A stretch of DNA of 64,000 nt. Source: Macrostomum lignano (lineage: Eukaryota). The position numbers and the translations under genes were made by a program. Shown one piece after another: positions 26,019 to 26,617 of this stretch. The notes under the pieces are model-generated. The model did no database searches, was not told the origin of the DNA, and was given only the letters and a program-made list of their open reading frames with translations. The DNA lies in assembly GCA_002269645.1 (NCBI GenBank), contig NIVC01002038.1:1-64000 (forward strand), given 5' to 3'. How positions within the stretch are numbered: the stretch's first letter is position 1; each line of letters starts with the position of its first letter.

Positions 26019-26617
26019 TCAGTCAGAGTCCAGCAAAGTAGGTTCGGATGCTTGGTCTGGTAGCAAAATGCGGGAGAGGGCATCAGCTGCAGTCTGAGCC
26101 TCAACCACGCTGCGAGCACCAGCTATTATACAGCGATATGAATGAAACAAAATCAACTTTACAGAGGCATTAAACTCGAGCACAAGTCCGTTAAACATTT
26201 CCGGCTTATACGTGCCCCGATGCGGCCATTTAGACTTGACTTCCCCCAACCGGAGTGGATGCCGACCCGCGGGAAAGGCCGTCACAGAGGTAATAGTCTT
26301 GATGCGAATCTGGGGCAGATTGGTCAATCGCAAGAAGTCCGCACACAGCCTCACAATCTTCTCCGCCTCTGCGAGAGCTTTCTCCATGCTTTTGGCTCCA
26401 CAGACAGACACTTGTCCGGTCGGATACACCAGCGCGGTTACTCGATGCTGCCCGCTCTTCATTACTACTGCCAGTGTTCGAGGATGAACCAGGCGATGGC
26501 GGATTGTGTGATACTGAGGCAGATGAAGAGTCAGGAAATTCGCTAGTTGAGGCAGACCACCCGGGTCGCCAGATCGGCTCCTGTCACGATGTTTGTCACG
26601 CGAATTGTTGCGACCAT
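26019..26617 (-). CDS. TATA-binding protein (TBP)-like, two-repeat core, ~199 aa after restoring a 1-nt deletion at ~26557
   Basis: ATG 26617 gives MVATIRVTNIVTGADLATRV[D]LPQLAN...; HPRTLAVVMKSGQHRVTALVYPTGQVSVCGAKS (TBP: [34 protein letters not shown]); YKPEMFNGLVLEFNASVKLILFHSYRCIIAGARS (TBP: [34 protein letters not shown]). Confidence 0.88.

Follow-up and report, generated by a model that had tools for sequence, protein, structure and literature searches.

Beta- and gammaherpesviruses encode mimics of the TATA-binding protein (TBP), such as KSHV ORF24, EBV BcRF1 and HCMV UL87, in which a TBP fold reads TATTWAA before late genes for transcription by host Pol II (PMC12529657, in the sections available). 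The same sections describe ORF24 as a large multidomain protein that works as one of six members of a complex, makes direct contact with Pol II and is without acidic TFIIB residues. The TBP that we describe here from Polintons of Macrostomum lignano would resemble these mimics in being a virus-encoded TBP fold that, as we propose, serves a variant TATA box before late genes and host Pol II, but it is a bare core of 187–199 aa and keeps the acidic TFIIB residues. Set against a herpesvirus-type vPIC, with its multidomain mimic, Pol II-binding domain and five partner activators, this likeness is a functional analogy only.

TBP-like genes are also found in Nucleocytoviricota and mirusviruses, which are large and many of which have their own RNA polymerase. 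Many viral TBP-like proteins in BFVD match the fold of the Polinton TBP model; the five large-virus TBPs that we compared form a clade separate from it, and no RNA polymerase subunit was found among the scanned ORFs of the 12.6-kb element. Cellular TBP and TRF2/TLF share with the Polinton protein the two-repeat saddle and the stirrup motif, and TRF2 too has altered DNA-face residues, but the identity to host TBP is 25% and the Polinton clade joins neither family in the best tree. With Polintons/Mavericks (adintoviruses) the element shares TIRs, a 6-bp TSD, pPolB, an rve integrase, ATPase, protease and putative capsid genes; it adds the TBP and a variant TATA box gene by gene.

In the text available for these elements, VLTF3 is the only transcription factor that we found described for animal polintoviruses (PMC11131425), and TBP is mentioned in mirusvirus-like elements (PMC10675990). 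Starrett et al. 2021 (PMC8502044; bioRxiv 697771, in the parts available) label a TBP-like gene in MELD/adintovirus-like elements, which are midsize and carry pPolB, in figure legends within a section on non-animal datasets; the original prediction, which implied that a Polinton TBP would be the first of its kind, was thus too strong. The available parts of PMC8502044 hold no text on TBP function, and the supplement gave 0 matches. Term searches for TBP or TATA returned 0 occurrences in the searchable text of PMC11071308, 10.64898/2026.06.19.733378, 10.64898/2026.10.13.758929, PMC11131425 and PMC10748475. No description of the function of a Polinton TBP or of a Polinton late box was found in our literature search, outside which lay most subscription papers, Repbase entries and bioRxiv supplements.

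The window, by which we mean the whole stretch of 64,000 nucleotides that was analysed (contig NIVC01002038.1, positions 1 to 64,000), contains a 12.6-kb Polinton from 24239 to 36829, flanked on both sides by the 6-bp TSD TATGGC. Its features are as follows.

24233 to 24238, no strand: left target-site duplication TATGGC
24239 to 25023, plus: left terminal region, beginning with the terminus at 24239 and including the inner TIR arm at 24779–25023 (100% to the right arm; outer part ~83% alike, with indels)
24981 to 24988, plus: near-canonical TATA box TATATAAT in the TIR, with the PC4-like ATG 56 nt further on; a mirror copy in the right TIR faces pPolB
25037 to 25462, plus: PC4-like (coactivator p15 / ssDNA-binding) ORF; E 0.003, below the Pfam cut-off
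26019 to 26617, minus: TBP gene, two repeats, no N-terminal extension, frameshifted in the window copy; by Pfam, solved-TBP matches, sister copies and fold
26620 to 27110, minus: DEDD/Maelstrom-like ORF immediately preceding TBP; its frame continues over the first TBP repeat in uninterrupted copies
26663 to 26670, minus: canonical TATA box TATAAAAG within the upstream gene, 53 nt ahead of the TBP ATG
27156 to 27163, minus: TATAAGAA box, 51 nt upstream of the DEDD-like ATG, counted from TAAG
27232 to 27681, minus: conserved Polinton ORF (orthologue of 'ORF230'), no box at 30–160 nt
27999 to 28006, minus: TATAAGAA box, 33 nt before a small ORF (ATG 27971)
28002 to 28662, minus: packaging ATPase, in two frames, broken
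28722 to 28729, minus: CATAAGAG box, 65 nt before the ATPase ATG
28808 to 29313, minus: cysteine protease, broken (C48, E 0.009; lineage-B orthologue above the PF00770 cut-off)
29285 to 30349, minus: putative major capsid protein (MCP), from gene order and capsid-type motifs; no Pfam match, 44% to the lineage-B orthologue
30449 to 30456, minus: CATAAGAA box within Lys-rich coding sequence, 105 nt upstream of the MCP ATG
30594 to 31376, minus: putative penton, labelled from position; no Pfam match
30745 to 30752, minus: TATAAGAA box, 138 nt before a small basic ORF (ATG 30612)
31373 to 32372, minus: rve integrase with chromodomain, broken (rve E 0.007, Chromo E 0.04)
31464 to 31471, minus: ATTAAGAA box, 93 nt before the penton ATG
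32563 to 36253, minus: protein-primed PolB (pPolB), in at least six frames, decayed (lineage-B orthologue PF03175, E 7e-14)
36356 to 36829, minus: right terminal region and terminus
36830 to 36835, no strand: right target-site duplication TATGGC

The inner TIR arms (24779–25023 and 36356–36600, 245 nt) are 100% complementary. In the terminal stretches 24636–25023 and 36356–36829 the inner 245 nt are identical and the outer part is ~83% alike with indels, in a copy that is otherwise decayed; gene conversion is possible. The broken pPolB and integrase pieces of the window copy give weak Pfam matches, and pPolB is above the cut-off in the lineage-B element L033. Jelly-roll capsid domains gave no Pfam match in the MCP and penton ORFs of either the window or lineage B, and these labels come from position and, for the MCP, partly from what we take to be capsid motifs. 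A PC4-like gene lies next to the TIR in both lineages (window 25037–25462; L038:8858–9583), and the L038 orthologue is above the Pfam cut-off (E 5e-7, 29.7 bits vs 25). Its product could be a Pol II coactivator or an ssDNA-binding protein for strand-displacement replication; our literature search found no clearly related paper on a Polinton PC4 gene.

The original prediction placed both TBP repeats at 26019–26617, and this was borne out. PF00352 matches 26022–26558 (minus) in two stretches at E 4.1e-16 (59 bits against a curated cut-off of 22.9; 59–80 bits for the window copy and its relatives together), and 35 solved TBP sequences match the same frame at E 1e-9 to 1e-6. The structure predicted for a natural uninterrupted copy (pLDDT 86.6, 11 sequences in the alignment) has a TBP fold: all its top Foldseek matches in the PDB are TBPs (E 7e-13, TM about 0.70). 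The first beta-strand, said to sit in another frame from ATG 26617, was found by the clade profile at 26546–26659 (E 3e-4), and the frameshift proposed at ~26557 lies at about 26555–26560. A stand-alone core of ~199 aa had been forecast as well; 16 of the 19 fetched sister copies have an uninterrupted TBP frame of 198–216 aa, which is 199 aa in 12 of them. The window Polinton is decayed and ~93–95% identical to one sister copy, and its broken TBP is unlikely to function. The conserved Polinton TBP itself is real.

The long ORF that led to the prediction (26019–27158) does carry TBP at its C-terminal end, but its N-terminal half is a separate DEDD/Maelstrom-like gene, joined to TBP only by the frameshift. 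A genuine DEDD-TBP fusion as the normal state was rejected: it occurs only in the frameshifted copies L001, L010, L019, L035 and L039, and the public record P0006, a Macrostomum lignano entry that is identical to one frame of the genome searched here, is likewise a frameshifted fusion copy. The DEDD-like frame is open for 106–128 codons over TBP repeat 1 in both lineages (window 26230–26617 and orthologues; shuffle p 0.003–0.02), and therefore frameshifts yield such fusions; a possible reading is that this stretch encodes an overprinted Ser-rich tail. In a cluster search with the DEDD-like ORF the nearest clusters were unnamed, with Maelstrom at 0.86 a lead only, and a search of its own genome returned lineages A and B. 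A cluster search with the TBP protein returned generic TBP clusters only.

We then compared copies across the 764-Mb genome. Among the 150 of 193 TBP candidates that were scored, at least 44 rows, fragments included, belong to lineage A, that of the window copy (71–100% identity), and at least 106 to lineage B (33–43%). Twenty further loci, 19 from lineage B and 1 from lineage A, were picked to cover the range of divergent rows: pPolB or MCP/ATPase stands beside TBP at 20 of 20, a Polinton context throughout, and the DEDD-like gene is directly upstream at 19 of 20, the remaining locus ending at a contig edge. The TBP is thus kept at the same place, after the DEDD-like gene, in two lineages whose TBPs are ~35% identical.

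Six more clade members, as sequences only, come from other public samples (P0003, P0004, P0005, P0010, P0283 and P0284), and scans of viral and metagenome contigs with the clade alignment found no further ones; a metagenome match for P0010 (L050) was discarded as a chance word match. Searches for short unnamed TBPs near the clade gave nothing but large-virus TBPs in viral contigs and were dominated by canonical TBPs when made with the alignment. Seven short, stand-alone, divergent metagenome TBPs (P0013, P0028, P0057, P0060, P0071, P0085 and P0089), several of which share the Phe-His end of the last strand pair, are candidates for TBPs of other small viruses. No TBP-less close relatives were found in the viral contigs searched with ATPase or MCP.

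Within lineage B, the elements L024, L026, L027, L028 and L038 have structural arms that are 93–97% identical, and from mid-TBP onward the alignment stops or drops to ~65–78%. Their TBPs are 96–98% identical in repeat 1 vs 53–71% in repeat 2. Replication arms seem to have been swapped at the junction between the TBP repeats, giving chimeric TBPs.

The gene was predicted to be a divergent viral TBP under selection, not a recent copy of the host gene, and the data agree. Nei-Gojobori dN/dS is 0.21–0.70 in 21 pairs from 7 lineage-A copies and 0.15–0.43 in 28 pairs from 8 lineage-B copies, hence below 1 in 49 of 49 within-lineage pairs; these are uninterrupted copies, and the second open frame overlapping the first repeat can distort the ratio there. 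Identity to host TBP is 25% at the amino acid level with no blastn match, which together with dN/dS below 1 rules out a recent host retrocopy. The host TBP and TRF2-like gene exist separately in the genome, both conventional; each is present three times, with an uninterrupted core and the same score every time (G000 C70, C713, C1301; C350, C3090, C3513). In a 55-row tree, a hand-picked subset of matches in which long branches meet, the Polinton TBPs are monophyletic (support 99/98). The best tree sets them apart from host TBP, TRF2, archaeal and the five large-virus TBPs; a grouping with host TBP is not rejected by the AU test (p 0.11).

We compared the DNA and TFIIB faces in 13 aligned natural proteins, mapping residues via TBP alignments to what we take to be yeast TBP numbering. 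The equivalents of N69, V71, T112, L114, E186, E188, F190 and F207 are invariant in 13 of 13, and F116>Y, T124>C, Q158>K, N159>T and V203>K are fixed in as many; V203 is one position of the classic altered-specificity TBP mutant. P191 is lost in 13 of 13, V161>T occurs in 12 of 13 and F99 is not retained. Of the four intercalating Phe, two are kept, one is Tyr and one is lost; of the symmetric Asn pair the first is kept and the second is Thr in all 13. The original reading was right about the repeat 2 Phe pair, about the Asn pair and about F>Y in repeat 1. Its F>L was not: the first intercalating Phe is indeed lost, but aligns to Thr/Pro (ungapped) or His/Trp (with a one-residue shift). Likewise, the single acidic stirrup residue that it reported is true of the decayed window copy only, in which one Glu is lost; both Glu of the acidic C-terminal TFIIB stirrup are invariant in the 13 natural proteins. 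This pattern, a TFIIB surface kept on a DNA face that has changed, would reflect re-tuning rather than erosion.

The same residues bear on whether the protein acts as a decoy or repressor, host TBP reading the box described below as a weak TATA while the viral TBP either ties up TFIIB or further TBP partners or obstructs promoters, those of the host or the early viral ones. The stirrup Glu are invariant while the DNA face is much altered and one intercalating Phe is lost, and lineage A is without most of the basic residues of helix H2, as such a role would allow. PDB titles list crystal structures of wild-type plant TBP with the TATA variants G(-26) and T(-30), and therefore host TBP can bind such single variants. 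Yet the DNA-face changes are fixed in both lineages, not drifting, and would be needless for a decoy that does not bind DNA; moreover, the lineage-B box CTTAAGAA is off the TATA consensus at three positions. We consider the decoy, a possibility named in the original prediction, unlikely: it accounts for the box less well than a box-reading TBP does. The altered TATA specificity that was proposed alongside it gains support from the fixed DNA-face changes and the box.

That box was found in lineage B, without use of lineage-A DNA, as TAAGAA before the ATPase, small ORF, DEDD-like, TBP and often MCP genes. The full 8-mer is TATAAGAA in lineage A and mostly CTTAAGAA or TTTAAGAA in lineage B. With gene starts (2 of 10 not ATG codons) and a 30–160 nt window that were set by hand after the sites were seen, TAAGAA is the top 6-mer in the lineage-B element L033, where 5 of its 6 sites lie in upstream windows (p 1e-3); in lineage A it shares the first rank, and all 5 of its structural-strand sites lie in such windows, which there make up 20% of the arm (p 3e-4). 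Box-to-ATG distances roughly agree between lineages A and B: 51 vs 45–56 nt for the DEDD-like gene, 33 vs 41–50 for the small ORF and 105 vs 102–108 for the MCP. The protease and ORF230 genes are without a box in both lineage-B elements tested. A reading as trans-splice acceptor is disfavoured, the host acceptor being [T/C]TNCAG (PMC8629364, in the part available), which differs from the motif.

The box might instead be a by-product of Lys/Arg-rich C-termini, the TBP fold having a non-transcriptional, DNA-bending role in replication or packaging. Codon-preserving shuffles in lineage A left TAAGAA short of significance (5 of 8 genes, p 0.066; TAAGA p 0.14), and lineage A passes the test only with motifs chosen post hoc (CTATAA, 0 of 3000; a broader pattern, p 0.01); the MCP box CATAAGAA is weaker evidence because it lies within a Lys-rich coding stretch. 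In lineage B, by contrast, the enrichment holds with amino acids fixed (5 of 7 genes, p 0.004; 4 of 5 genes, p 0.007; L033 and L022 being related, not independent, elements), TAAGAA falls in different reading frames at different genes, and the TFIIB stirrup is invariant. We regard this explanation as extremely improbable.

The motif also recalls the baculovirus late start (A/G/T)TAAG, and it could be a helper-virus promoter read by the polymerase of a co-infecting large virus while the TBP does something else. Most sites fit DTAAG, and some Polinton-like viruses depend on helpers, according to sources available in part. However, conservation reaches beyond TAAG to a TATA-like box of 8 bp that ends in AA, TAAG is preceded by C at some MCP sites, and among orthologous starts no box is closer than 33 nt to the ATG. 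Our literature search found no paper on a TAAG promoter in Polintons, and we know of no helper virus for Macrostomum lignano; we judge this reading very unlikely.

Canonical TATAWAWR precedes 1 of 8 late genes in lineage A and 0 of 7 in lineage B, and TIR-proximal genes carry near-canonical TATA boxes in both. The TBP gene itself has a canonical box in lineage A vs a variant one in lineage B, and because of this a clean early-to-late order is not conserved. These boxes bear on a further alternative, in which the viral protein has a relaxed, TBP-like specificity and only raises the TBP supply in cells or replication compartments that are short of host TBP/TFIID. In keeping with such a role, lineage-A boxes are one base off canonical TATA, the lineage-A TBP gene has a canonical box, and large DNA viruses carry near-canonical TBPs (L044–L049). 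The near absence of canonical boxes before late genes, where the variant recurs, and the extreme divergence from host TBP speak against a generic supplement, which we find distinctly unlikely.

A TBP-less Polinton in the window (about 1–13.2 kb) served as a control, one distant element: it has no TBP and no TAAGAA pattern before its structural-arm genes, and of 23 listed ORFs two have the motif 30–160 nt upstream, one starting at an internal Met of pPolB and the other lying antisense. This second, unrelated element (about 1–13100) has T-run/A-run spacers before its genes and an ORF at 12528–12992 that looks, presumably, phospholipase-A2-like. Elsewhere in the window we observed a near-identical duplicated segment at 13400–19300 and 59100–63800, including an ORF at 13536–14045 that we take to be fibrinogen-like; arrays of a 15-nt unit in inverted orientation ~1.2 kb apart at 46480–48223, like a foldback element; and a 1034-aa ORF at 52154–55258 (plus).

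The reading that we favour, and think probable, is that the viral TBP reads the TAAGAA-type box and recruits host TFIIB and Pol II to the structural, or late, genes; the box is plausible as its cognate promoter element. Terminal-repeat promoters with ordinary TATA boxes, those of the PC4-like gene and pPolB, would be readable by host TBP. Once made, the viral TBP would bind the variant 8-mer 33–150 nt before individual structural-arm genes, bending it with the retained C-lobe Phe pair, and its intact acidic stirrup would pass the complex to host TFIIB, so that host Pol II could then transcribe the capsid, ATPase and neighbouring genes. From the sequences we infer the DNA binding, its specificity, the TFIIB contact, the timing and the box as promoter alike; the fold, conservation, residue pattern and box positions are direct observations. 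With regard to specificity, the proline P191 gives a preference for T as the first base of TATA (PMC12529657, sections available); P191 is lost in the clade, and lineage-B boxes often start with C.

Contigs from four sequencing runs of uncertain type cover most of the element and are uninformative on expression or start sites. For Macrostomum lignano, both RAMPAGE libraries and transgenesis are available (PMC5730564, in the part available). For the activation of Polinton capsid genes and their need for a helper, a virus TBP with a matching late box would be a concrete mechanism, checkable on existing 5'-end data.

These findings suggest that a private promoter-reading factor may switch on the Polinton particle genes. 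More broadly, and as a tentative proposal that we hold at somewhat less than even confidence, animal Polintons may have a minimal, one-protein late switch, in which a captured TBP has been re-tuned to an 8-bp box of its own and the two co-evolve within each lineage. If true, no viral rewiring of Pol II promoter recognition would be smaller; the TBP and its promoter box would form a natural orthogonal pair, and a herpesvirus-like solution would have arisen independently in a genome of 12 kb. This would also give a natural set of altered-specificity TBPs and be evidence of a staged, helper-free virion programme that these elements run in the nucleus.
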